From Candidatus Sulfomarinibacteraceae bacterium (GTDB lineage: Bacteria; Acidobacteriota; Thermoanaerobaculia; Thermoanaerobaculales; Sulfomarinibacteraceae), in assembly GCA_963796455.1 (NCBI GenBank), contig CAWCLO010000004.1, forward strand, positions 288,001-352,000: DNA of 64,000 nucleotides, written 5' to 3'. The notes beneath the pieces are model-generated. The model was given only the letters and a program-made list of their open reading frames with translations, was not told the DNA's origin and made no database searches. Position 1 is the first letter of the stretch; each line of letters opens with the position of its first letter. The position numbers and the translations under genes were made by a program. Below are positions 11,213-58,581 of the stretch, piece by piece.

Positions 11213-11319
11213 AAATCACCGGGTTGAGCCCCCGCCCACTCACCCACGGAGAAACCGCAGATAACGCAGATGGACGCAGATAATCAAACGCTCTCGGGAT
11301 CACGATCGACCTGAGGGCG

Positions 11320-11460
11320 ACTCACACGGCGACCGCACAATTGCCATTCAACATCTTCGGGGCTCCGACCTTGGTGGTGCGGCCGTCTCGGCCGCACGGT
11401 GTGCAGGCGAGACGCCTGCACCACAACGGTTTTACCTTCCGTTCAACGACCCGGAATTGA
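11320..11460 (-). repeat. Degenerate copy of the four-helix-bundle element core with a REP-like hairpin doublet
   Basis: Closely resembles 41310-41425 (CCTTGG.GGTGCGGCCGTCTCGGCCGCACGGTG.GCAGGCGAGACGCC..CACCACAACGG...AACGACCCGGA). Confidence 0.65.
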
Positions 11461-11547
11461 CGACTCAGTCTCGGACCACTGTCCCTGATTGTTGTCCCCG
11501 CCTCCGTATTTCGGACCGCCGTGGGGACTCCGGATTTCTGCGGGGAA

Positions 11548-26090: not shown

Positions 26091-26343
26091 AGTGTCCAGG
26101 GACAGGGACGGGGACAGGGAACAGCGACGGGGAACAGCGACCAGGTGACTGTCGTGGCGTGGCGCTTGCTCAAGCCAAAGACATGATTCCGGATCTCCAT
26201 ACCAGTCAGGCTGGACGCCGTCGCTGCCGCTGATCGCTGTGCCTGCCGCTGAACGCCGCCCCTGAACACTGCCCGCTGCCGCTGTCCGCCGTTCCCCGTC
26301 GCTGTCCTGATTGCCGTCTGAGACGCTGTGTTGGACAAGAGTG
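26091..26343 (+). mobile_element. Internally deleted four-helix-bundle element (copy E)
   Basis: Left CAGGGACAG/CAGCGAC arm; gene 3' remnant DQVTVVAWRLLKPKT* at 26139-26186; right CTGCCGCTG arm; terminus CTGAGACGCTGTGTTGGACAAGAGTG. Confidence 0.75.
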
Positions 26344-31409: not shown

Positions 31410-31600
31410 GGCGCTGCCGCCGATCGCTGACCGCTGTTCCCTGTCGCTGCTCACTGTCGCTGTCCCTGTTCGCTGGTGCCTGTCGCTGCCCCTGGACTCT
31501 GCCGCTGCCGCTGCAATTCGGGAGCGGGATCGGGAAGGGGTAGGTGCCAACCGTGAACCGGATATGCCAAAAACCAACCCGTAAACCACGTGTTGTCAGA
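31410..31600 (-). mobile_element. Left-arm-only copy of the four-helix-bundle element (copy F)
   Basis: GCTGCCGCTGCAATTCGGG...CAACCGTGAACCGGATATGCCAAAAACC, shared with 41505-41600 and 50666-50760. Confidence 0.7.
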
Positions 31601-31714
31601 TGGGCAGCTTCACATGACGATCTGCTTTGGACAGCAGTGATCCTGAATCCTGCATCCAGCAGCGAGCATCGGGTGGCCTGTCCGTCTCTGTGGTTTTGGA
31701 GTTGCGGGTGAGTG

Positions 31715-37851: not shown

Positions 37852-37881
37852 AAGGGGCTGCCTTCGGGCAGCCCCTTTTTT
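37852..37881 (+). terminator. Intrinsic terminator
   Basis: AAGGGGCTGCC-TTCG-GGCAGCCCCTTTTTT. Confidence 0.9.
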
Positions 37882-38240
37882 ATGGCTATGAAGCTATGGT
37901 CGGCCGCTTCGCGGCCTGGCTATGAAGCGATGAGGGTCTTGCAGAATTGCGGGGATACCTGAAAAAGTTTGGAGTCCGAGGCCCCATTGCCTCACGGCCC
38001 CATAGCCCCAAGGCTCATCGTCTATGGCCGGCTGTTGCGCAGCCTGGATTTGAGGCAGTGAGGCTCTGATCGGTCGCTTTGCTCCCTGGCTATGAAGCTA
38101 TGAGGGTTCTGCAGAATCGTGGTGACACGGGAAAGAGAGTTCGGAGTCCATAGCCCCATTGCCTCACCGCCCCATGCCCCATAGCCCCATAGCCCCATAG
38201 CCCCATAGCTCCATAGCCTCACTGCCCCACTGCCCTCACC
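37882..38240. repeat. Tandem pair of units with inverted GCTATGRR / CCCATAGC octamer arms
   Basis: Units at about 37885-38015 and 38025-38230 share GGCTATGAAGC.ATGAGGGT..TGCAGAAT...GGAGTCC...GCCCCATTGCCTCAC. Confidence 0.8.
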
Positions 38241-41146: not shown

Positions 41147-41600
41147 TCACTCGAGTCCAAGGCGGTGCCTCGGACAGCGTTCAGGGACAGCGACAGGGAA
41201 CGGCAAACAGCAAAAAAAACCGTAGCATCCAGCGATCAGCGGCAGCAAACAGTCGCCAGCGGCAGTGTTCAGTCATCAGCGTCAGCGATCAGCGGCCGGG
41301 ACAGTGAACGGCACTCATTTCTTCGGGACTCCGCCCTTGGGGGTGCGGCCGTCTCGGCCGCACGGTGGGCAGGCGAGACGCCGACACCACAACGGCTGTT
41401 CCTTTTATTGAACGACCCGGAGGTGATCACGCCGTCGCTGCTCCTGATTGCTGCCCCTGATCTCTGCCTCTGATCGCTGATCCTTGTCGCTGCCCCTGGA
41501 AACTGTCGCTGCCGCTGCAATTCGGGCACGGAAGCGGACGCGGACGCGGGCGCGGAGCAACCGCGATTCGGATATGCCAACAACCAACCGCCAATCCAAG
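41147..41600 (-). mobile_element. Four-helix-bundle element with the gene replaced by a REP-like doublet (copy C)
   Basis: Terminus TCACTCGAGTCCAAG..CTCGGACAGC; gene stop remnant CCG AAG AAA TGA GTGCCGTT (minus strand); outer-stem arm TGAACGACCCGGAGGTG; left end GCTGCCGCTGCAATTCGGG. Confidence 0.78.
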
Positions 41601-41670
41601 TGTTGTCGAGAGAGCAACTTTATCGACGAATTGGGGTTGACAGCAATGACAGCTGAGGCCACCTATATAT

Positions 41671-47240: not shown

Positions 47241-47352
47241 GTCGCGGGATACTCGATGCTGGATTCTGGATGCTGGATCGTGCCGCGTTTCGGAGAAACC
47301 GCAGATAACGCAGATGAACGCAGATCAGGCATCCAGTATCTAGCATCAAGCA

Positions 47353-48097
47353 TCACTCTTATCCAAAACAGTGTCTGGGACAGGGTCAGGGACAGCGACG
47401 GGGAACGGCAGACAGCGAACAGGAGCCAGCGGCAGCATTCAGTCATCAGCGACAGCGCCGGCAACTGCACTTACATTTTCGGGTTCAACAGACGCCAGGT
47501 CATGGCACGGACCTGATCGAAGGCCTTCATCGCATCATTTGCTCCGTTCGGGCTGATCGCCCCGGCGTGGGCGAGGAGCTGCAAGTGGCTGTCGACCTCT
47601 TTCGCCGAGGCGTAGGCGATTCTCCAGTGGTTGGATCGGTCTCTTCCGACTCGGCCGTGCCCTTCTGCCAGATTCGCAGGGACTGAACTCGCTGACCGGA
47701 CGACCTGATCGGCTATGGATTTCAGCGGAGCGGGAACTCTCATCACGAGTTTGATCGCGATTCCTGCTGCTTCGAGGGCTTTCGAGTGGACAACGAGGTT
47801 GGTGTTCGTGGCGGCGTTGGACATGGTCACCTCCGGGTCGTTCATGCGCATATCCACAAGCCGGTGTGGCGGCCGATGTCAAGGATGCCCTGCACCCTGC
47901 CTGTCCTTGACATCGGCCGCCCACCGGCTACCCCTTCTGTTGAACGACCCGGAGGTGGCCATTTCGTCGCATGAAATCCAGACTGCTGCCGCTGCTCTCC
48001 GTCGCTGAACACTGACCGCTGTCCCTGTTCGCTGTAGCCTGTCGCTGACGCTGGACCCTGTCGCTGCCGCTGCAATTCGGGATTGGGAACGGGATCG
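47353..48097 (-). mobile_element. Complete four-helix-bundle element (copy B)
   Basis: Both conserved ends, complementary arms, leader hairpin and an intact gene; homologous to 57851-58581. Confidence 0.8.
47471..47824 (-). CDS. Four helix bundle protein (23S rRNA IVP / Avd-like family)
   Basis: DQVVRSASSVPANLAEGHGR...IAYASAKEV..HL; GGAGG RBS upstream of ATG. Confidence 0.9.
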   Translation of the reverse strand: MSNAATNTNLVVHSKALEAAGIAIKLVMRVPAPLKSIADQVVRSASSVPANLAEGHGRVGRDRSNHWRIAYASAKEVDSHLQLLAHAGAISPNGANDAMKAFDQVRAMTWRLLNPKM

Positions 48098-48165
48098 AAA
48101 AAGATGGAGACGTTTCTCGTCGTTCATCTGCGCGATCTGCGGTTTCTCAGGCGCAGGATTGTCGG

Positions 48166-49605
48166 CTAGTCAGAGATCCCCACGAAGCGTAGAAGGTGTT
48201 TCCGGAACTGTGCCGCGAGACCGGCCGGTGAGATGAGGGCTCCGGTCTCGTCGCGCAGTGCTTCGCCTTCAAGACGGCGCACCGCCATCTTTTCAGCCAG
48301 CTGATCGGCGAGTTCGGTGTGGTGTTCGAGGAGATCGTGGAGGCCGGAATCGTCGACTTCGATCACTTCGAGGAATTGGTCGGAGGCCCTGACGGTGGCT
48401 GTTCTCAGACTTCCGGTCAGGAAGGCCATCTCGCCAAAGAGATCACCTTTGGTGAGGGTGGCGAGGTCTCGCCCCTCCTGCTCGACAGCGGCCGATCCGG
48501 CGGCCACCAGGTAGAGGGCGGTGGATTCTTCTCCGGTCTGCACCACCGCTTCCCCTGGCGCATAACGATGCAGGCTCGAGGCCTCCGCCAGAGCGACGAG
48601 GGCCTCCTCGGGGATTTCTGCAAACAGTTCACAGGCCGCCAGGGCTTCTCGCCGTCGGTCCTGGGAGTCTGAGCTTTCGACCCGACGCGGTCGGTGCAAC
48701 GTGCGCTGGGGGAATGGAATCTCCATGCCGGTCCTGGCCAGTGCCGCGTGCGCACGAGTGAGAAAGGCATCGGTCAGATCTTCGCGCCGCCACGGCGTTC
48801 GCGTCCACAACCGGCACTCGTAGACCACCGCACTGTCGGCAAATTCGACGGTGAGGATTCTCGGTGCGGGAGTCGCCAGCACACCGGGAATATCGATCGC
48901 GACCTGGCGGAACACCTCTTTGGCGGCATCCGGCGGCACACCGTAGGCGACACCCAGGCGGACGGCAACGGCTGCCGGGCGTTCACCTGAGCCGAGGATG
49001 GTGACCCGAGCAGAGCCCACATCCGAATTCGGAACCAGCATGCGTTCGCCGAGGCGGGTTCGCATGAGAAGTGACCGCCATCCGGTCTGTTCGATAATGC
49101 CGACCCGGCCGTCGAATTCGACCCAGGTACCGATGGAAAGACGTTGTTCCCACGCCAGGGCGAGGCCGGCGAGCAGGTTGCCGAGAGTCTGTTGCAGAGC
49201 CAACCCGACGACCACCGTAATGACCGCCGAGGTGGCAATCAGACCTGTGATTTCAACACCTAGATTTCGCAACAGAAAAAGGCCCAGCAGGAGATAGACA
49301 GCGAGGGCTACGACTTCGCGTACCAGGCGCGGTGGGGTCACTCCCATTCGACGGATGAGAACCCAGTCGAAGATGATCATCAGACTGCCCCGCGCAACCA
49401 GAAAACCGAGCGACAGCACCAACGCCACCTCGGTCCAACGGATCAGAACTTGGTCGGCGGCGAACTGCGAGGCCAGGAGATGGGCCAGGGCTGCCGCGGC
49501 CGTCAGAAACAAAGGCAAGGTCAAAGCACGGAGCCGTTTGAGCGGTTCGGCGCGCAGCACGATGGCCACGACAACGGTGACGACGATCAGGATGGCATCC
49601 AACAT
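48166..49605 (-). CDS. MscS mechanosensitive channel with a C-terminal cNMP-binding domain
   Basis: GLALQQTLGNLLAG, GMEIPFPQR and FGEMAFLTG..RTATVRA. Confidence 0.92.
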   Translation of the reverse strand: MLDAILIVVTVVVAIVLRAEPLKRLRALTLPLFLTAAAALAHLLASQFAADQVLIRWTEVALVLSLGFLVARGSLMIIFDWVLIRRMGVTPPRLVREVVALAVYLLLGLFLLRNLGVEITGLIATSAVITVVVGLALQQTLGNLLAGLALAWEQRLSIGTWVEFDGRVGIIEQTGWRSLLMRTRLGERMLVPNSDVGSARVTILGSGERPAAVAVRLGVAYGVPPDAAKEVFRQVAIDIPGVLATPAPRILTVEFADSAVVYECRLWTRTPWRREDLTDAFLTRAHAALARTGMEIPFPQRTLHRPRRVESSDSQDRRREALAACELFAEIPEEALVALAEASSLHRYAPGEAVVQTGEESTALYLVAAGSAAVEQEGRDLATLTKGDLFGEMAFLTGSLRTATVRASDQFLEVIEVDDSGLHDLLEHHTELADQLAEKMAVRRLEGEALRDETGALISPAGLAAQFRKHLLRFVGISD

Positions 49606-49713
49606 GGGGCCATAGTACCCAAACACCGATGCGGAATCACTCGTTTGGCCTTATCGCTTTCGGCCGGAAATGAGTTTGACGGCCTCGCCATTCACATTTC
49701 AGGAGGCCGGGAG

Positions 49714-49851
49714 ATGGGCATATTCAAGGTGCGGTCGGATTCGGACGAGAACCGCCTTGACACCAGCTTTGGTGGGATTTTCGAGGAGCACGAGTCGGTG
49801 AGCTACGCGGGATCGATCGCCGAAGCGGACGCGATCCTCGACAACCGGTGA
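49714..49851 (+). CDS. Small 45-aa ORF, possibly an internally deleted gene
   Basis: AGGAGG RBS; MGIFKVRSDSDENRL...GSIAEADAILDNR. Confidence 0.35.
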   Translation: MGIFKVRSDSDENRLDTSFGGIFEEHESVSYAGSIAEADAILDNR

Positions 49852-49857
49852 GCCCGC

Positions 49858-50526
49858 CTATTTTCTGTAGTTCGAGTTCTCGGTGTCGATTCGCAGCTCG
49901 AGACCCTTCCACGTGGTCACGGTGGATGACCGGGCGACATAGTTCGGGCCGTAGTCCATGCTGCCAAAAGTGACGTCGAGGGTGAGGGGCTGGCCTTCGT
50001 TGCTGGTGGCGACCGACATGCTCAGGGGCCGCTGGCTGGAGCGGACCAGGGTGACCTGGACGGTGTCACCCGCGTTGACCACATCCTTCGCGTTGAGAAG
50101 GATCTCTTCATCTTTTGCGGTTGCGGTCGCCGACGATACGGCCTTCTCCGCAAACAGCGGTCCCAGGTAGACATCGAGTTGCTCCCTGGCTTTTCTGATG
50201 AACTCGATCGCAGCTTCACGGTCTTTTTTTGAAAGCTTCTTTCCGTCGGGAAACCGCACCTTCTCCTTTGTGACTGTGCTCCCGGTCTGGAGTTTTTCGA
50301 GAAAGCCGTTGACGTTGTATCGTGACGAATAGGTGTCGGTCTGTTTCGGGACCCCGTCAACCGAATAGACGATCTTCGAATCCCATGCGTAGAGTCGAAT
50401 CTCTTCCTGGTTCTTTTTCATCTGGGCTGACATAGCTCGAAGATCGAAACCGTCCTGTGCGGGGACGTCGGTAGCAGAGATCATCAGCCCAATCGCGAAC
50501 GCGAACAACATTTTCAATCGATTCAC
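49858..50526 (-). CDS. Secreted hypothetical protein
   Basis: GTG start, signal peptide and beta-rich composition. Confidence 0.7.
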   Translation of the reverse strand: MNRLKMLFAFAIGLMISATDVPAQDGFDLRAMSAQMKKNQEEIRLYAWDSKIVYSVDGVPKQTDTYSSRYNVNGFLEKLQTGSTVTKEKVRFPDGKKLSKKDREAAIEFIRKAREQLDVYLGPLFAEKAVSSATATAKDEEILLNAKDVVNAGDTVQVTLVRSSQRPLSMSVATSNEGQPLTLDVTFGSMDYGPNYVARSSTVTTWKGLELRIDTENSNYRK

Positions 50527-50665
50527 CTTCTCACTCCCTTCGCATCCAAGGCCCCTAAGCAGGTGTTGCAGGTTACCATGGGGGGCCGGGGATTCCGGAT
50601 GTTCGGGTTCCCGCTGTACAGAACATACCGTCACGTGAATTTGCTGACTCAACAGCACCAGAATA

Positions 50666-51048
50666 GCGGTTGAGGGTTTTTGGCATATCCGGTTCGCGGT
50701 TGTCCGTGCCCGTGCCCGTGCCCGCGTCCGCGTCCGAATTGCAGCGGCAGCGACAGTGTCCAGCGTCAGCGACAGGCAACAGCGAACAGGGACAGCGGCA
50801 GTGACCAGCGACAGGGAACAGCGGTCGGCGATCAGTAGTCAGCGATCGGCGGCAGCGATCAGGTGCAGCGACGGCGTGGCTCTTCCTCCGACGAGCCTCC
50901 CAAGATTAAGGTGTCACCCATGTCCCTAGAACAAAGTGTTACCCATGTCTCCGGGTCGTACCCTTCTGTTAGCTGACCTTGTCCGCTGTCGCCGTTCCCC
51001 GTCCCCGTCCCCGGTCGCTGTCTGAGACCCTGTCCTGGACGAGAGTGA
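50666..51048 (+). mobile_element. Internally deleted four-helix-bundle element containing an IS481-like end (copy D)
   Basis: Left end GGTTTTTGGCATATCCGGTTCGCGGTTG..CCGAATTGCAGCGGCAGCGACAG; right end CTGTCTGAGACCCTGTCCTGGACGAGAGTGA. Confidence 0.75.
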
Positions 51049-51120
51049 TGTTCCATCGAAGACTGCGGTTCCGATCGACGCGAGAGGCGGGGTAGAATGC
51101 GTGTCCGACTGGAGGACGAC

Positions 51121-51747
51121 ATGCGATTGCCCCGCGAATTGGATCCGGTGGAGATCCGGGTCCTCGGCTGCCTGCTCGAAAAGGAGCAGACGACCCCCGA
51201 CGCCTACCCGCTTTCGGTCAACGCCCTGATGGCCGCCTGCAATCAGAAAAGCAACCGTGATCCGGTCATGCAGCTTTCGGAGGCAGATGTCGAGGCGACG
51301 CTGGACCGGCTGCATGGTGAAGTCATGGTGTGGCCGGTGGAAGGTGCCAGGATCCGCAAGTGGCGCCACAGCCTCGATCGAAAGTGGGAACTCGACGGCC
51401 GTGTCAAAGCCGTCATCACGGTTCTTCTTCTCCGCGGCGCCCAGACCGCCGGCGAGATCCGGACACGAACGGCGCGCATGCATGATTTTGCTTCCACCTC
51501 TGAGGTCGAGGGCGCGTTGGCTGAACTGGCGGGCGGGGAAGAACCTTTGACGGTCCACCTCGAACGACGGCCGGGTCAGAGGGACGCCAGGTGGACCCAC
51601 CTCTTAAGTGGCGCTCCGACCGAGGCGACTGCGCCCTTCCTACCATCGGCTCCCGAAGATTCAGCCGCCCCTCTCTCGGAACGCCTCGCCGAACTCGAGG
51701 CACGGGTCACCCGTCTCGAGGAAGCCATGGCCCGACGAGAAGATTAA
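51121..51747 (+). CDS. YceH/DUF480 family protein
   Basis: RVLGCLLEKEQTTPDAYPLS.NAL..ACNQKSNRDPVM and LLLRGAQT.GE. Confidence 0.93.
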   Translation: MRLPRELDPVEIRVLGCLLEKEQTTPDAYPLSVNALMAACNQKSNRDPVMQLSEADVEATLDRLHGEVMVWPVEGARIRKWRHSLDRKWELDGRVKAVITVLLLRGAQTAGEIRTRTARMHDFASTSEVEGALAELAGGEEPLTVHLERRPGQRDARWTHLLSGAPTEATAPFLPSAPEDSAAPLSERLAELEARVTRLEEAMARRED

Positions 51748-52268
51748 TCCGAAGGCGAGGGTGGCGGGAAAAACCCGAGCTGGCTCAGAAAAGCTACGTT
51801 GTCCCAGCTGACCCAGGTTTCGGCGACTTTCCCGTTCTCCAACCGCTGGATGATGATGTTGACGAGAGTGAATTCCTTGCCGGTGGCGGGCAAATCGCCC
51901 ATGGGTCCGGTCTGAACTCCCTTCATCGTCGACACATAGGCGACCATGTCGCCCTGCGCAATCATCTGGGTCAGGGTGTCTTCGTAAACCGGGACGGCGA
52001 TCAAGAAGTCCTCGATGAAGGCGAGAAATTCCGCGGTCCCTTCGAGCTCCTGGAACTCGGGCGGCATGGCCTGGCAATGACGGACGTAGTTCGGAGCCAG
52101 TGCCGTTTTGAAGGCCTCGATGTCGCCGCGGGCCAGGGCCGCGTGGGTACCCCGCACCGCCGCGATATTCGATTCTTCGATCGATTGTGTGGCAGGTTGT
52201 ACACCGCATCCGGCGAGTGCCGCCGACATCCAAAGAACGAAGCAGCCGCAGCAGATCAGACGATTCAT
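51744..52268 (-). CDS. SnoaL-like ester cyclase family lipoprotein
   Basis: LAGC lipobox; IAQGDMV, G.QTG.MG..PATGK and GKVAETW. Confidence 0.88.
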   Translation of the reverse strand: MNRLICCGCFVLWMSAALAGCGVQPATQSIEESNIAAVRGTHAALARGDIEAFKTALAPNYVRHCQAMPPEFQELEGTAEFLAFIEDFLIAVPVYEDTLTQMIAQGDMVAYVSTMKGVQTGPMGDLPATGKEFTLVNIIIQRLENGKVAETWVSWDNVAFLSQLGFFPPPSPSD

Positions 52269-52429
52269 GAAACACCTCCGGGCCTTTTCGATTTCGTTCT
52301 TGTCGTTGATTGCTCCTTTGGATCATATCCTGCCCTTTCGGCCGTGTCGGAATCGAAAATGGTAGATTTTGTTGCATCTGGTGTTATGAATGCCCGGCGT
52401 TCAAAAAATCAACCAACGGAGATAATTTC

Positions 52430-53230
52430 ATGAAAACGTTTCGGACTGTGTCTGCCATCATTTTGACCATCGTCCTGGCTGCCGGAACGGTCGCGGCCCA
52501 GGAGGAGTCCAAGAAGAACACAGGTCGCCGCAAGGGAGCGAAGGGCGGGGCCATCGTGGGTCTGACCCTCGGTGCCCTGACCGGTGACGCCAAGATCGCC
52601 GTTGCCGGTGCCGCGGCAGGCGCCGTGGCAGGGGGGGTAAGCGGAGACTTTTATGATTACGATCAGAGTCGACAGGATGATCGCACCCAGATGCTTGCCG
52701 ATGGCATCGCCGGGTCGAAGGCGGGCAGCCCCCAACCTGGCGAAACCGTAGGAGAAACGGGCAAGCGCCATTTCCAGGAGCTTTCGGGCGAGTGGAAGGT
52801 CGACATGTGGTACATGGGCAATGAGGGCAAGGGCCAGACGGCGTCGGGCACGGCCCGAGGTCTCCAGGCGGGCGACAACGCCATTCGGATCGTCTACCAG
52901 GATATCGCGGTCGAAGGCTACGAAGAAAAAGTCGGTGGATACACGCTTCTGAGCTACGAACCGGGTCAGGGTTTTTCTATCGAGAACATTTTTTCGGTCT
53001 CGGACGATGTGGTCAAAGGAGTCGGCGAATACCTGGCGGATCGTAACCTCTACAACTTTTACATGGTCGACCCGACAGCCGGTGAGATGCTCGCCGGCGG
53101 TCTGATCCGTTCAAATGTGCGCACAGAGGTCCGGATCGTCGGGTCTACCATGTGGATTGCCGAGGCCTTTACCATGATCGACGGCGAAGAGACAAAGGTC
53201 CAGACATACCGGTTTACTCGACCGCAGTAG
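52430..53230 (+). CDS. Secreted glycine-zipper protein
   Basis: Signal peptide; GAKGGAIVG..LGALTG..GAAAGAVAGG. Confidence 0.75.
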   Translation: MKTFRTVSAIILTIVLAAGTVAAQEESKKNTGRRKGAKGGAIVGLTLGALTGDAKIAVAGAAAGAVAGGVSGDFYDYDQSRQDDRTQMLADGIAGSKAGSPQPGETVGETGKRHFQELSGEWKVDMWYMGNEGKGQTASGTARGLQAGDNAIRIVYQDIAVEGYEEKVGGYTLLSYEPGQGFSIENIFSVSDDVVKGVGEYLADRNLYNFYMVDPTAGEMLAGGLIRSNVRTEVRIVGSTMWIAEAFTMIDGEETKVQTYRFTRPQ

Positions 53231-53256
53231 CGCTTTCGGTTGATCGGCAGGCGGTT

Positions 53257-54375
53257 TCAGCCTCGCAATCTCGCGATTGCTTCCCGCTCCTTTTCCCGAG
53301 AAATCCATCCGCGCGGATTCGCACGGCGCTCGTCGGTTTGCGCGCGCCACCACTCAAGGGTGCCCTCAACCGACTCGGCGAGCGAGCGGTAGTCGAGCCC
53401 GGTGCGCATGGAGGCCTCGTTCGAGAAGACGACCGGGTCGCCACCCTCGTCTCCCCGGGCATTCCAGTCGAGCATTGGTGGAGAGATCTCGAGTTCGTCC
53501 AGCAGGGCCTGTTCGGGCCACCAGAATCGAACCGGGGCGTTGGTGGTGGCCCGGATGCCCCACATCAATCCGGCGCGGGAGACCTCGGACGATGGTCCGG
53601 CCGCGTTGTAGATGCCGACGGCGTCGCGCTCGACGAGATCGATCACCCAGGGGCAGAGATCGCGAGCATCTACCCACTGGATGACGTCGTCGGGTCGGTT
53701 CGACGTCAGCACGTCGCCGCCTCGATGGATTCGGTCGGCCCAATAGGTGAAACGATCGGTACGATCGCCGGGGCCGACGATATAGCTCGGGCGAACGATG
53801 GTCGCCTTGTCGCCGAGTTCGGACTGGATGATCCGGTCGCATTCCGCCTTGAGCGGACCGTAACTCTCTCCGGTGACCTCTTCGAGGGTCGGATCGTTCA
53901 AGGGTGCGAGCGGTCCGTCCTCGGGGAAATGCGGGCCTTTACTGAAGTCGTAGACCGCCACCGTCGAAATGTAGAGATATCGACCGACCCGTCCCTTGAG
54001 CAATTCCACTGAATCGCGGACGTGACGCGGCACGTAGCCTGAGTTGTCGATCACCGCGTCCCAGGTGCGGTCACCCATGAGTGGGTCGAGCCCATCATCG
54101 ATCTTCGAATCGCGGTTGCCGACAAGTTCTTCGACGGCGCTACCAAAGAGACCGGACTTCCGCCCACGATTGAAGACCGTCACCTTGTGTCCGCGTTCGA
54201 GGGCGTAACGCACCTGGTGCGGACCGATAAAACCGGTGCCACCGAGAAACAACAGATCGAGCGAAATCCCGGCCCTCGGGACTGCGGCGGTTGCGCTCCG
54301 GAGACCGGCGGCGCCGAGGCTGACGGCACCCGCGGTGCCGGCGGCAATCTTCAAAAAATCGCGACGAGTCGTCAT
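53257..54375 (-). CDS. Tat-exported NAD-dependent epimerase/dehydratase family protein
   Basis: TRRDFLK, LGGTGFIG, YGPLK and DARDL. Confidence 0.9.
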   Translation of the reverse strand: MTTRRDFLKIAAGTAGAVSLGAAGLRSATAAVPRAGISLDLLFLGGTGFIGPHQVRYALERGHKVTVFNRGRKSGLFGSAVEELVGNRDSKIDDGLDPLMGDRTWDAVIDNSGYVPRHVRDSVELLKGRVGRYLYISTVAVYDFSKGPHFPEDGPLAPLNDPTLEEVTGESYGPLKAECDRIIQSELGDKATIVRPSYIVGPGDRTDRFTYWADRIHRGGDVLTSNRPDDVIQWVDARDLCPWVIDLVERDAVGIYNAAGPSSEVSRAGLMWGIRATTNAPVRFWWPEQALLDELEISPPMLDWNARGDEGGDPVVFSNEASMRTGLDYRSLAESVEGTLEWWRAQTDERRANPRGWISREKEREAIARLRG

Positions 54376-54584
54376 GAAATCCTCCAGCTTCAGATTGTCG
54401 AGAAGGGGAGATCTTAGCAAATTCACATGTTCGTTTGATGCGGACTGATTCTTTCGATCGGGCTCTCGATGTCAAGAAACCCGGTGCCGGATGTGATCTT
54501 TCGCACAGGTCGTGGCTGAATATCGAGAAACCGGGGTTACGCCTGATGGGATTGCTGCGTCCTTGCGCGTGGAGGGCGTGAAAA

Positions 54585-55259
54585 ATGAATTGCAGACCAA
54601 TTGCTATTGTTGTGGTGCTCTTTTCTTGTTGCATGATCGGCTCGGCTGGAGCGGGAGACGTAACCCTGACCGGCACCGCGGCCCACAACAGTTTGATGGG
54701 GGTCGAATTCTCGATCGACGGCAAAAACGACAAATCCTATATCGAGGACATACACCCCGAGGCCGAGGCCACCTACCGGGCGGGTTTCTGGTTCAACCCG
54801 AGCGGACTCGTTCTGGAAAATAAAACCGGGCACATCATCTTCGAGGGAGTCGGTCCCAAACCGGCCGGCGCAAAGGGCGACACCCGGGTCATCCATATTC
54901 AGTTGTGGCGCAACAACAGTGGTGTTCTCAAGGTCAAGGCCTATGCCCATCAAACTCCGGGTCTCGGATTGAAGAGGGTCGGCACGAAGATGATCAAGAT
55001 CGACGATCAAGGGTGGAACCACCTCACTTTGGAGTGGCGGGCGACATCGAGCAACAGCTCGCCCAACGGTTTGCTGCGCCTTTCCGTCGACGGCGGATCT
55101 CGGGCCGGTGGGACTTCCGAAATCTCAGGAGTCGCGCTGAATGAAGGGCTGGTGATCGAAAAGGCCCGGATCGGTGCCGTCCGAGGAGTCGATGCGACAA
55201 CAAGTGGGTCTTTTGCGATCGATACCTTTGAATCCTTCAGAAGCCTGACGAATCAGTGA
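54585..55259 (+). CDS. Secreted beta-sandwich (lectin-like) protein
   Basis: Signal peptide; YIED..P.AE.TYRA.FWFNP, H..LEWRA, GLLRLSVDG and ARIG..G.D..TSG.F..DTFESFR. Confidence 0.7.
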   Translation: MNCRPIAIVVVLFSCCMIGSAGAGDVTLTGTAAHNSLMGVEFSIDGKNDKSYIEDIHPEAEATYRAGFWFNPSGLVLENKTGHIIFEGVGPKPAGAKGDTRVIHIQLWRNNSGVLKVKAYAHQTPGLGLKRVGTKMIKIDDQGWNHLTLEWRATSSNSSPNGLLRLSVDGGSRAGGTSEISGVALNEGLVIEKARIGAVRGVDATTSGSFAIDTFESFRSLTNQ

Positions 55260-55366
55260 ATTCCTGTTCGGGCACCAACGCTTCATTTCCGGGCGCCTGA
55301 AATGCCGGAGATAGGCCTGGGTTAGAATGCCTCACGATGCTGTCGGCCGGCTGGAGGTATTCGACC

Positions 55367-57079
55367 ATGAACGATTTCGATCTGGGTCCCGGGTTTTGTC
55401 GGTTTCTTGTTGTCCTCGCGATTTCGGGTGGCCTCGCGGCCTGCTCGGCGCCGCAGCACTACGATGTGATCGTTCGCGGAGGCACGATCTACGACGGGAC
55501 CGGATCGAGCCCCTTTGTGGGCGATCTCGCCATCGACGGTGACGCGATCGTCGCCATCGGTTTACTCGAAAACGCCAAAGCAACGACGGAGATCGAAGCG
55601 GCGGGTCTCGCCGTGGCTCCGGGCTTCATCAATATGATGTGCTGGGCGAACGAGTCTTTGATCGAAGACGGCCGTTCTCAGAGCGACATTCGCCAGGGCG
55701 TGACTCTCGAGGTTCTCGGCGAGGGTGACTCGATGGGTCCGCTCAACGAGCGGATGCGGGCTGAGATGCTGCGCCGTCAGGGTGATATCACCTATGACGT
55801 CGAATGGACGAGCCTCGACGAATATCTCGTTTTCCTCGAACGACGGGGCGTTTCGCCCAACGTCGCATCCTTCATCGGTTCCGCCACGCCCCGCGACTAC
55901 GTGATCGGTTCCATCGATCGCCCTCCCACCCCCGAGGAACTCGACGAGATGAAGGCCCTGATCCGGACAGCGATGGAGGAGGGAGCGCTCGGAGTCGCCT
56001 CGGCCCTGATCTATCCACCGGGCAGCTTTGCCGAGACCGACGAGTTGATCGCGCTCGCCGAGGTCGCTGCCGAGTACGACGGAATGTATATATCGCATGT
56101 CCGGGACGAGGGCGCCCGCCTGATCGAAGCGATTGACGAACTCATCACCATCGCCCGCGAGGCTGGCGTTCGGGCGGAGATCTATCATCTCAAGGCATCG
56201 GGACATGCGAATTGGCCTCTCTTCGATCGGGCAGTCGAGATCGTCGAAGAGGCGCGCGCCGAGGGTCTGGCGATCACCGCGGATGTCTATACCTATCCTG
56301 CGGGTGCGACCGGACTCAACGCGAGCATGCCTCCGTGGGTACAGGAGGGTGGTTTCGATGCGTCGCTCGAACGGCTCTCGGACCCGGCCACGAGGCAACG
56401 CATCGCCCGAGAGATGCTCCAGCCATCCGATGAATGGGAGAACATGTACCTCGGCGTCGGCACGTCTGAGAATATTCTGCTTGTCGGTTTCAAGACCGAG
56501 GCGCTCAAACCCTTGACCGGCAAGACCCTGGCCGAGGTCGCGGCCATGCGCGGCACAAGCCCCGAAGAAACCGCCATGGATCTGATCGTCGAGGACGGGT
56601 CGCGGATCGGGACCATCTATTTCAGTCAATCGGAGGATGTCCTGAAACGGGCCATTGCCTTGCCGTGGGTCAGCTTCAACTCGGACGCGGCCTCGTTGTC
56701 GCCCGAAGGCGTGTTCCTCAAGAGCAACCCCCACCCGCGGGCCTACGGCAGCTTTGCGCGTCTGTTGGGCAAGTATGTGCGGGAGGAGAACCTGATTTCG
56801 CTCGAGGAGGCCGTGCGCAAACTCACCGGCCTCCCCGCTGCGAATCTCAAGCTTGACCGGCGTGGGCTTCTTGACGAGGGTTTTTACGCCGATGTGGTGG
56901 TCTTTGACCCGGCCACGATTCAGGACCACGCGACATTTGTCGAACCCCATCAATACGCGACCGGCGTGAAACATGTTCTGGTCAACGGTGTCCGGGTCCT
57001 TGCCGACGGCGAGCACACCGGAGCGAAGCCCGGACGCGTGGTGCGCGGTCCGGGATGGACCGGGCGGGCGAAGCACTGA
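55367..57079 (+). CDS. N-acyl-D-amino-acid deacylase family amidohydrolase (lipoprotein)
   Basis: LAAC lipobox; VAPGFIN, YISHVRDE, IYHLK, DVYTY and HPRAYGSF. Confidence 0.9.
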   Translation: MNDFDLGPGFCRFLVVLAISGGLAACSAPQHYDVIVRGGTIYDGTGSSPFVGDLAIDGDAIVAIGLLENAKATTEIEAAGLAVAPGFINMMCWANESLIEDGRSQSDIRQGVTLEVLGEGDSMGPLNERMRAEMLRRQGDITYDVEWTSLDEYLVFLERRGVSPNVASFIGSATPRDYVIGSIDRPPTPEELDEMKALIRTAMEEGALGVASALIYPPGSFAETDELIALAEVAAEYDGMYISHVRDEGARLIEAIDELITIAREAGVRAEIYHLKASGHANWPLFDRAVEIVEEARAEGLAITADVYTYPAGATGLNASMPPWVQEGGFDASLERLSDPATRQRIAREMLQPSDEWENMYLGVGTSENILLVGFKTEALKPLTGKTLAEVAAMRGTSPEETAMDLIVEDGSRIGTIYFSQSEDVLKRAIALPWVSFNSDAASLSPEGVFLKSNPHPRAYGSFARLLGKYVREENLISLEEAVRKLTGLPAANLKLDRRGLLDEGFYADVVVFDPATIQDHATFVEPHQYATGVKHVLVNGVRVLADGEHTGAKPGRVVRGPGWTGRAKH

Positions 57080-57100
57080 GACAGGACAAACGGAGAAAAA

Positions 57101-57805
57101 ATGGCCACACCACACATCAATGCCGAAGCGGGGGATTTTGCGTCGACGGTTCTGATGCCCGGCGATCCCTTGCGGGCGAAATACATCGCTGAGAAGTTCC
57201 TTGATGAAGCCCGCCTCGTGACGGATGTCCGAAACATGTTCGGTTTCACCGGCGAGTACAAGGGACAACCCGTATCGGTCATGGCCCATGGGATGGGGAT
57301 CCCGTCGGCGTCGATCTACTGCACTGAGTTGATTCAGGATTATGGTGTTCAACGTGTGGTCCGGGTCGGTAGTTGTGGGGCCGTACTCGATTCGGTTTCG
57401 GTTCGCGACCTCGTGATCGCGATGGCTGCTTCCACCGATTCGGGCGTCAACCGAACCCGCTTCGGCGGTCACGATCTTGCTCCGGTGGCAAGCTTCAGCC
57501 TGCTTCGCAGCGCCGTGGCCACGGCCGAAGAACGAGGTTTCAAATATCATGTGGGGAACATCTTTTCGGCCGACCTCTTCTACTCGCCCGATCCGGCGCA
57601 GTTCGAATTGATGCGGAAGTACCAGATCCTCGGTGTCGAAATGGAAACCGCAGGCATCTACACCATCGCCGCTGAACTCGGCGCGGAGGCGCTGGCGATC
57701 TGTACTGTTTCGGACCACATCATGACCGGCGAAAAGCTCTCGTCCTCGGAACGCCAAACCACCTTTGACGAGATGATCGAGGTGGCCTTGGAAGCGGTTA
57801 CCTGA
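57101..57805 (+). CDS. deoD: Purine-nucleoside phosphorylase
   Basis: [34 protein letters not shown] and TVSDH. Confidence 0.97.
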
Positions 57806-57850
57806 TTTCCCGTCCGTCTCAAACCGCAGACAAAGCAGAAAAAATTCGCT

Positions 57851-58581
57851 CCCGATCCCGAAATGCAGCGGCAGCGACAGTGTCCAGCGACAGGGACAGG
57901 GATCAGGGATCAGGGACAGCAATCAGTTTTCAGCGGCAGCGGTCAGGAGTCCATGCGGCGAAGTGGCCACCTCCGGGTCGTTCAAGAGAAAGGGGTAGCC
58001 GGTGGGTGGCCGATGTCAAGGACAGGCAGGGTGCAGGGCATCCTTGACATCGGCCACCACACCGGCTTGTGGGTATGGGCATGAACGACCCGGAGGTGAC
58101 CATGTCCTCAGCCGCCACGACCACCAACCTTGTTGCCCACTCGAAAGCCCTCGAAGCAGCAGGCATCGCGATCAAGCTCGTGATGAGGGTTCCCGCTCCG
58201 CTGAAGTCCATAGCCGATCAGGTGATCCGGTCGGCAAGTTCAGTCCCTGCGAACCTGGCAGAGGGGCACGGCCGATTCGGTAGAGACCGTTTGAACCACT
58301 GGAGAATCGCGTACGCCTCGGCCAAAGAGGTCGATAGCCACTTGAAGCTCCTCGCCCACACCAGCGCAATCAGCGCGAACGGAGCCCGTGAAGCGATGAA
58401 CGCCTTCGATCAGGTACGTGCGATGACCTGGCGGCTCTTGAACCCGAGAAAGTGAGTGCCGTTTGCTGTCGCTGATGACTGAACGCTGCCACTGAACACT
58501 GATCGCGGCTCCCTGTCGCTGAGGCTGATCGGTGTCGCCGTCCCTGATCGCTGTCTGAGGCTCTGTCTTGGACTCGAGTGA
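57851..58581 (+). mobile_element. Complete four-helix-bundle element (copy A)
   Basis: Left end CCCGAAATGCAGCGGCAGCGACAG; leader hairpin; intact gene; right end CTGTCTGAGGCTCTGTCTTGGACTCGAGTGA. Confidence 0.8.
58102..58455 (+). CDS. Four helix bundle protein (23S rRNA IVP / Avd-like family)
   Basis: Differs from 47471-47824 at 15 of 117 residues by manual comparison. Confidence 0.9.
   Translation: MSSAATTTNLVAHSKALEAAGIAIKLVMRVPAPLKSIADQVIRSASSVPANLAEGHGRFGRDRLNHWRIAYASAKEVDSHLKLLAHTSAISANGAREAMNAFDQVRAMTWRLLNPRK

Follow-up and report, generated by a model that had tools for sequence, protein, structure and literature searches.

How does an element without a transposase come to occupy some two hundred sites in one genome, and what keeps its only gene intact? 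This question is raised by a 64,000-nucleotide stretch of DNA from a Candidatus Sulfomarinibacteraceae bacterium (contig CAWCLO010000004.1, positions 288,001 to 352,000; the window refers to this whole stretch), which carries dispersed copies of an element whose passenger gene belongs to PF05635, a four-helix-bundle family also known as IVP or S23p. A preliminary description of the window had listed seven copies in both orientations, all of which we find near the positions it gave, and had proposed a selfish, self-complementary, transposase-less element outside rRNA that may spread through an RNA or single-stranded DNA (ssDNA) intermediate, with the help of a trans-acting reverse transcriptase (RT) or HUH enzyme. 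The nature of the element is supported by our analysis; its route of spread is not. Instead, the element is a cassette that has the ends of an IS4-family insertion sequence (IS) and 9-bp target duplications, is likely moved by an IS4 transposase in trans, and carries a conserved gene behind a leader containing a predicted ssDNA promoter.

The cassette and its ends

The genome that holds the window (G000; G-, L- and C-numbers denote the genomes, loci and contigs compared in this analysis) spans 5.02 Mb in 10 contigs and is 90.5% complete. With a complete copy as query, the cassette family takes up about 229 loci, together 105 kb or 2.1% of this genome, and a self-comparison identifies it as the only large repeat family, with 270 segments against 13 for the next. 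Complete gene-bearing cassettes measure about 820-900 bp, hold a passenger gene and no transposase between their ends, start with CACTGCTGTCCAAAACA and finish with TGTCTTGGACAAGAGTG. These termini are inverted repeats, whereas the preliminary description had reported none and had taken the gene-bearing copies at 47353-48097 and 57851-58581 to be full. Complete copies in fact reach about 95 bp further left than either of these. The former (47354..48093, minus strand; match I1, 474 nt at 90%) lacks its left IS end and has its right end at 47354-47370. The latter (57847..58580, plus strand) aligns at 84% identity with positions 103-864 of a complete copy and lacks its left end as well, whereas its right end, a terminal inverted repeat of the IS4 type (58564..58580, plus strand), is intact. 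Genome-wide, we counted 97 left and 138 right ends, against zero once the genome is shuffled; the ends form 63 pairs, 343-897 bp in length. Of the end motifs described earlier, CCGAA(T/A)TGCAGCGGCAGCG(A/G)CAG recurs five times exactly; the right-end pattern as first written gives only three matches at up to 2 mismatches, while a relaxed form of it is present in five copies.

The target duplication, previously said to be absent, is 9 bp long: it is exact in 21 of the 63 pairs and has at most one mismatch in 37, compared to 1.8 exact cases among shuffled pairs, and exact duplications of 4-8 or 10-13 bp do not occur in any of the 63. Within the window it flanks a complete gene-less copy (41148..41648, minus strand), which has both ends, although worn, and a duplication with one mismatch (CTCAGCTGT/ATCAGCTGT). 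The target is symmetric, reading A-T-S-C-W-G-S-A-T in 45 copies, and is supplied mainly by GATGCTG/CAGCATC arrays. Since adjacent array units are identical in just 9 and 12 of the 63, and the 7-bp core is kept within one mismatch at 10 of 18 sites outside arrays, the duplication is not merely an effect of landing in a tandem array. Arrays of the AGCATCC family lie near an end in 20 of 49 cases, those of other families in 0 of 54, 1 of 56 and 1 of 48. A first reading of the duplication as 7 bp was rejected, as ends shifted one base inward give 9 bp; the notion that the heptamer arrays are footprints of the cassette was dropped because a 9-bp duplication cannot make an array of period 7; and integration by a tyrosine recombinase with a 7-bp core was abandoned when the ends matched IS4.

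As the preliminary description held, the copies are intergenic: 12 of 235 ends fall in open reading frames (ORFs) of at least 250 aa, though such ORFs make up 70% of the genome, and the copies in the window sit between protein genes, not in an rRNA helix.

Origin of the ends

The left 18-mer of the cassette is found in metagenomes at 120 loci or more, with an estimated total of about 520. Both ends were present at 27 of the 125 loci scanned, five of which are viral, and at 15 of these 27 they enclose more than 1200 bp. Ten long ORFs from between such ends were compared with Pfam, and each carries DUF4372 and DDE_Tnp_1; five were compared with NCBIfam, and each scores above the cut-off of NF033592, the IS4 model. 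A genome of the same genus (G017) holds an IS4 element (L359) with the ends of the cassette, which also sits between heptamer arrays. At the left end, its tip matches the cassette at 18 of 18 positions, and beyond the tip at 35 of 77, where shuffles give 19.8 and 2 of 10,000 reach 35; in total the two ends are colinear over 95 bp with 53 matches. The motif GGTT(T/G)TTGGCATATCCG, described previously as preceding the end of several copies, is therefore subterminal DNA of the IS. The Y(2)R(3)E(6)K (YREK) motif is present in all four IS4 transposases examined, including that of G017, and a fragment of an IS4 transposase was found in G169. The nearest named plasmid match of the transposase is ISAbe18, at 37-38% aa identity, and two related IS4 elements in complete plasmids have duplications of 9 and 7 bp. 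Named genomes that carry the same ends are labelled either Ca. Sulfomarinibacteraceae or Holophagae. Viral contigs gave 5 and 63 motif hits, among which we saw no convincing element. As to the subgroup, the ends of the cassette fit the IS4Sa pattern of CA------T with 8-10-bp repeats, an assignment that goes as far as the pattern listed in Table 1 of PMC2266710.

These ends point to cut-and-paste insertion, very probably carried out in trans by an IS4 helper that has since been lost or was left unassembled. One DDE_Tnp_1 element and one IS481 of G000 were considered as helpers and ruled out by their different ends; the genome furthermore has two IS110 fragments and three integrase matches. In related genomes, the same IS4 ends also enclose other interiors, being either hairpins that resemble repetitive extragenic palindromes (REP) or about 250 bp without a gene (L095, L096, L175, L183).

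The passenger gene

In the copy at 57847..58580, the gene (58102..58455, plus strand) encodes 117 aa from its ATG, is preceded by GGAGG at 58092-58096, and lies in a frame that is open from 58069; the second gene copy of the window (47471..47824, minus strand) is intact as well. Both ORFs exceed the cut-off for PF05635/TIGR02436, in agreement with the IVP/Avd-like gene recognized earlier. The predicted structure has a pLDDT (predicted local distance difference test) of 93.5 and matches 2GSC (TM score 0.81), 2RLD, and the Avd structure 4DWL (TM score 0.77), the latter with a root-mean-square deviation of 1.6 at 9% identity. PF05635 is a large family, with 4,076 clusters at E values up to 1e-10, for which structures have been solved and, to our knowledge, no function is known.

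In G000, 59 full-length single-hit copies of the gene were found, 58 of which have an open frame, and about six further copies are frameshifted when read by eye. The copies diverge by 10-11%, chiefly at third codon positions. For alleles shared among the 59 copies, the ratio of nonsynonymous to synonymous polymorphism (pN/pS) is 0.14-0.17, and for 19 young copies of the G006 type, a subset of at least 47 that was picked from top hits and end matches, it is 0.22-0.26. The gene is under purifying selection. Its copies are also short-patch mosaics: linkage (r2) drops from 0.15 between near sites to 0.024 beyond 50 nt, with none of 2000 permutations attaining the near value, and for three of six pairs of multi-site blocks all four combinations are found. 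The copies have therefore recombined with each other, with recurrent mutation adding noise. Contigs of four public runs likewise show many variant letters within the gene.

G000 also has four unrelated PF05635 genes (L023, L024, L025, L026), each flanked by inverted 6-8-base repeat arms of its own, and the cassette is sometimes inserted into arrays like theirs. A tRNA-Asp(atc) that ARAGORN places within the gene (58277-58366), on its complementary strand, is probably false.

The cargo in related genomes

The gene clade is present in 58 of the 77 genomes of the family. In several of these (G008, G014, G016, G005, G020 and others) the arms, leader and gene recur between ends of the sequence GGYTCATCCGG that are placed in AACGTT arrays; at 9 of 14 such loci there is a duplication of 8 bp within one mismatch. 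An autonomous ISL3 element in G017 (L333) has the same GGCTCATCCGG ends as these cargo copies. IS4-ended copies from G000 and G006 share one branch with ISL3-ended copies of another genus (Shimodaira-Hasegawa-like approximate likelihood ratio test, SH-aLRT, 98; protein 88% identical), in a tree made by a quick method from 117 columns, 47 of whose 93 inner branches are open. The ends have therefore been exchanged, and it is quite likely that the core, meaning the CAG arms, leader and gene, predates both kinds of wrapper, with ISL3 as well as IS4 ends having captured it.

If so, could the core spread without any ends, by recombination into hairpin or repeat sites, with IS ends as late additions that boosted its copy number in some lineages? 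Next to the wide distribution of the gene clade, six genomes (G151, G184, G173, G091, G004, G040) have 22-40 gene matches each, and most of the copies inspected in them, 4-9 per genome (in G004, most rather than all), have neither IS4 nor ISL3 ends. Such multicopy cores without ends leave room for a second route. Copies furthermore tend to group by genome, with end-less rows on deeper branches of the same quick tree, and recombination of the arms is evident in G000 itself, from interiors that are inverted relative to the IS ends (C7:133819-134344 and C1:390882-391607) and from several other copies with a mirror of the right end where the left end should be. However, the end-less sets tend to be older, with median ORF identities of 0.72-0.87 compared to 0.89 in G000 and 0.98 in G006, so that erosion of ends and end-independent spread cannot be told apart; on the other hand, the ISL3-ended set of G158 is as low as 0.82. 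Given these small samples and the many open branches, we treat this second route as a tentative possibility. In G151 (L445, L460) and G184 (L451, L456), left arms have grown into long perfect tandem arrays of 12-13 bases.

The leader

The arms of the element are complementary, as was claimed before, and indeed pair in an RNA fold with a z score of -6.7 relative to 20 shuffles. Between them, a two-stem fold-back leader precedes the gene (57963..58104, minus strand), which scores a z of -11.7 when folded as DNA and is predicted to hold an ssDNA promoter, with TTGACA at 58014-58019 and TACCCC at 57992-57997, 16 nt apart. Rfam gave no notable match for it, except for one chance snoRNA hit below threshold. 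We oriented 148 leaders by their gene, 142 of which have the outer stem. In 136 of these 142, a TTGACA-like hexamer on the antisense arm is followed at 16-18 nt by TA; no leader shows this on the sense arm, though TTGACA itself is conserved on both arms. This spacing holds over 51 distinct spacers. Moreover, mismatches in the stem are such that the antisense strand would have 38 G-T pairs and the sense strand 15.

The geometry is that of Frpo-type promoters, in which the fold-back sets the -35 and -10 boxes on the non-template arm of the template strand. By prediction, this strand would fold so that the -35 is paired and the -10 is not, with a stem downstream, and the promoter would point into the gene; on this basis we lean towards a leader that acts as an Frpo-type promoter, so that the gene would be read only from ssDNA, such as DNA entering the cell. 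ComEC was found in G000, but it is weak as evidence because 10 of 14 controls have it too. A single-stranded phase may still matter for expression of the gene rather than for insertion of the cassette.

Alternatively, the gene could be an ordinary passenger, beneficial to or tolerated by the host, in which case the leader would be an RNA hairpin masking the ribosome-binding site, and the mosaicism would result from routine gene conversion between some 60 paralogues. In the RNA fold, GGAGG and ATG are indeed base-paired in the outer stem, gene-less copies have spread well, and mobile insertion cassettes carry passengers according to the part of PMC6199540 used here. Private changes in the G000 copies are, in addition, near neutral (pN/pS 0.62-0.74, p 0.014-0.083). 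An RNA fold, however, predicts neither the conservation of TTGACA on the two arms nor the antisense G-T bias, nor a TA that is confined to one strand and keeps promoter spacing over 51 different spacers, and dozens of intact copies are not easily needed for the benefit of a host. We regard this explanation as rather unlikely.

What, then, would the protein do? That a gene-less subfamily spreads means that the protein is not required in cis for IS4-type movement, and something else must therefore keep the gene intact. Conceivably, though we hold this with some doubt, the protein acts on its own ssDNA, by protecting or annealing it so that it recombines into resident copies. Were it to aid recombination of its own DNA, then selection, mosaicism and exchange of ends would be linked. 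At its most speculative, and in our view improbable, the leader, gene and arms would form a new selfish module that is active only as ssDNA, in which an Avd-like pentamer drives short-patch recombination into resident hairpins, and which spreads without ends of its own while repeatedly hijacking ISL3 and IS4 ends to seed new sites.

Insertion and its helpers

The preliminary description had named a match of the ends to an IS with a cognate transposase as a finding that would speak against its proposal, and IS4-family ends with a 9-bp duplication are what we found. HUH transposases generate no target duplication. This makes it very improbable that the cassette inserts by way of an RNA or ssDNA intermediate with RT or an HUH enzyme acting in trans, for all that an Avd-like fold, a long hairpin, mosaic copies, an excess of right over left ends (138 vs 97) and six Y1 transposase matches in the genome would favor it: the fixed duplication and IS4 ends do not support HUH (Y1)/REP or retroelement insertion, RVT_1 (PF00078, the sole RT model searched) was not found in G000, and in left-truncated copies, read by eye, the sequence at the break is not a repeat of the right flank. 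No adenine bias appears among private mutations of the G000 gene copies (21 per 82 A sites, 43 per 114 C sites, 28 per 102 G sites and 17 per 53 T sites), and no layout of a diversity-generating retroelement (DGR) was seen next to the copies that were read. At C4:1142500-1148800 and C8:150867-151193, on C8 near the IS110 fragments, G000 holds three related Y1 transposases, each about 330 aa long.

Several results weigh against the model of an IS4-mobilized cassette with an ssDNA-read gene, among them the near-neutral private changes and the spread of copies without a gene. No cognate IS4 transposase was found in G000, at its 90.5% completeness, nor in G006, which holds the youngest copies, and no ISL3 transposase was found in G014, G005 and G003, despite the ISL3-type ends there. 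Only 32 of the 59 full-gene copies in G000 retain both ends. Among the metagenome elements of autonomous size, 3 of 14 have a 9-bp duplication and 11 show 5-9 mismatches, perhaps as multi-copy IS are mis-joined in assemblies. Empty sites were not obtained: none of the joints is empty in the 15 shown of 63, and contigs of the four public runs contain no usable joint. In 17 relatives, IVP genes are missing to a distance of about 1.5 kb from deoD; the neighbours there differ too, so that the locus is not syntenic. As for the leader, the final T of the -10 box is missing in 128 of 136 cases and present in 8, and these leaders are kin rather than independent observations.

Other copies and repeats in the window

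The remaining copies in the window are partial or rearranged. A copy at 31412..31639 (minus strand) is represented by its left part; it includes the subterminal 95 bp derived from IS4, and its left terminal repeat (31623-31639) is intact. A gene-less copy at 50609..51047 (plus strand), with a worn left end and a right end, contains a remnant of an IS481 end (50871-50966) that is 95% identical over 96 nt to an IS481 on contig C3; elsewhere, an intact IS481 is found within the left arm of one cassette copy (L090:600-1925). The copy at 26103..26343 (plus strand; right end 26327-26343) is internally deleted, and 11320..11470 (minus strand) is an interior fragment of the gene-less subfamily, 84% identical to 41320-41436 over 117 nt. 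Throughout G000, a marker of this subfamily is hit 76 times, and a recurrent deletion 9 times.

A separate hairpin family (GAGAAACCGCAGAT...), with 95 arm matches across G000, flanks the copy at 47354 (47293-47320 and 48121-48148) and recurs at 11249-11283; it is presumably linked to GxxExxY genes. A duplicated hairpin unit at 37879-38213 carries (GCCCCATA)n arrays.

Relation to known systems

The vehicle is of a known kind, and its value is that it offers a handle on the function of PF05635. In the open-access literature we found no paper that describes this cassette, or that places a PF05635 gene between IS ends or downstream of a leader of this type. Dozens of copies per genome that recombine and are under selection, together with a conserved promoter-like fold and a pair of interchangeable IS wrappers, make PF05635 readily testable here. 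Should the protein indeed act on its own element, this would also bear on the spread of gene-bearing rRNA intervening sequences, and an ssDNA-activated module, if true, would provide a function for this large orphan family and for the intervening sequences that carry it.

The cassette fits the definition of a mobile insertion cassette as worded in the passages of PMC6199540 drawn on here. The same passages describe MIC231 of Bacillus cereus, from the IS231 subgroup of IS4, as such a cassette of about 700 bp to 3 kb for which transposition in trans was demonstrated. Both have two IS4-family inverted repeats, no transposase, one passenger gene and a similar size. In contrast to MIC231, however, our cassette has ends that fit the IS4Sa type rather than IS231, and a genome holds some 60 copies of its gene that are intact, mosaic and under selection; its cargo also occurs in ISL3 ends or without ends, and has hairpin arms and a promoter-like fold of its own. 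Movement in trans, demonstrated for MIC231, is for our cassette a probable route. With IS4-family elements that have a DUF4372 transposase (NF033592) it shares the CA------T ends, of which about 95 bp is retained, as well as the 9-bp duplication and symmetric target. It differs from them in lacking the transposase, and in its strong preference for one family of heptamer arrays.

The cassette is neither an rRNA intervening sequence nor a retroelement. Like the ORF-bearing 23S rRNA intervening sequences of Coxiella and Leptospira, as far as these are covered in the sections of PMC4990558 cited here, it has a PF05635 gene within complementary arms that may form a long stem; unlike them, it is intergenic and outside rRNA, it has the ends of a DNA transposon, and its gene is conserved where theirs is decaying. 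The four-helix fold is shared with Avd of the DGRs, yet at 9% identity, in a genome without a detected RVT_1, without adenine-biased changes, and without a DGR layout beside the copies read. Finally, the leader resembles the Frpo and ssi promoters of plasmid leading regions, which, in the excerpts of PMC9849209 and PMC13478746 considered here, have a long fold-back with -35-like and -10-like boxes for reading the downstream gene from ssDNA. The predicted promoter of the cassette differs from these in being chromosomal and multicopy, and in its -10 box of TAyyyy, mostly without the last T. If the gene is indeed read from ssDNA, single-stranded promoters would extend from plasmids to a chromosomal selfish element.

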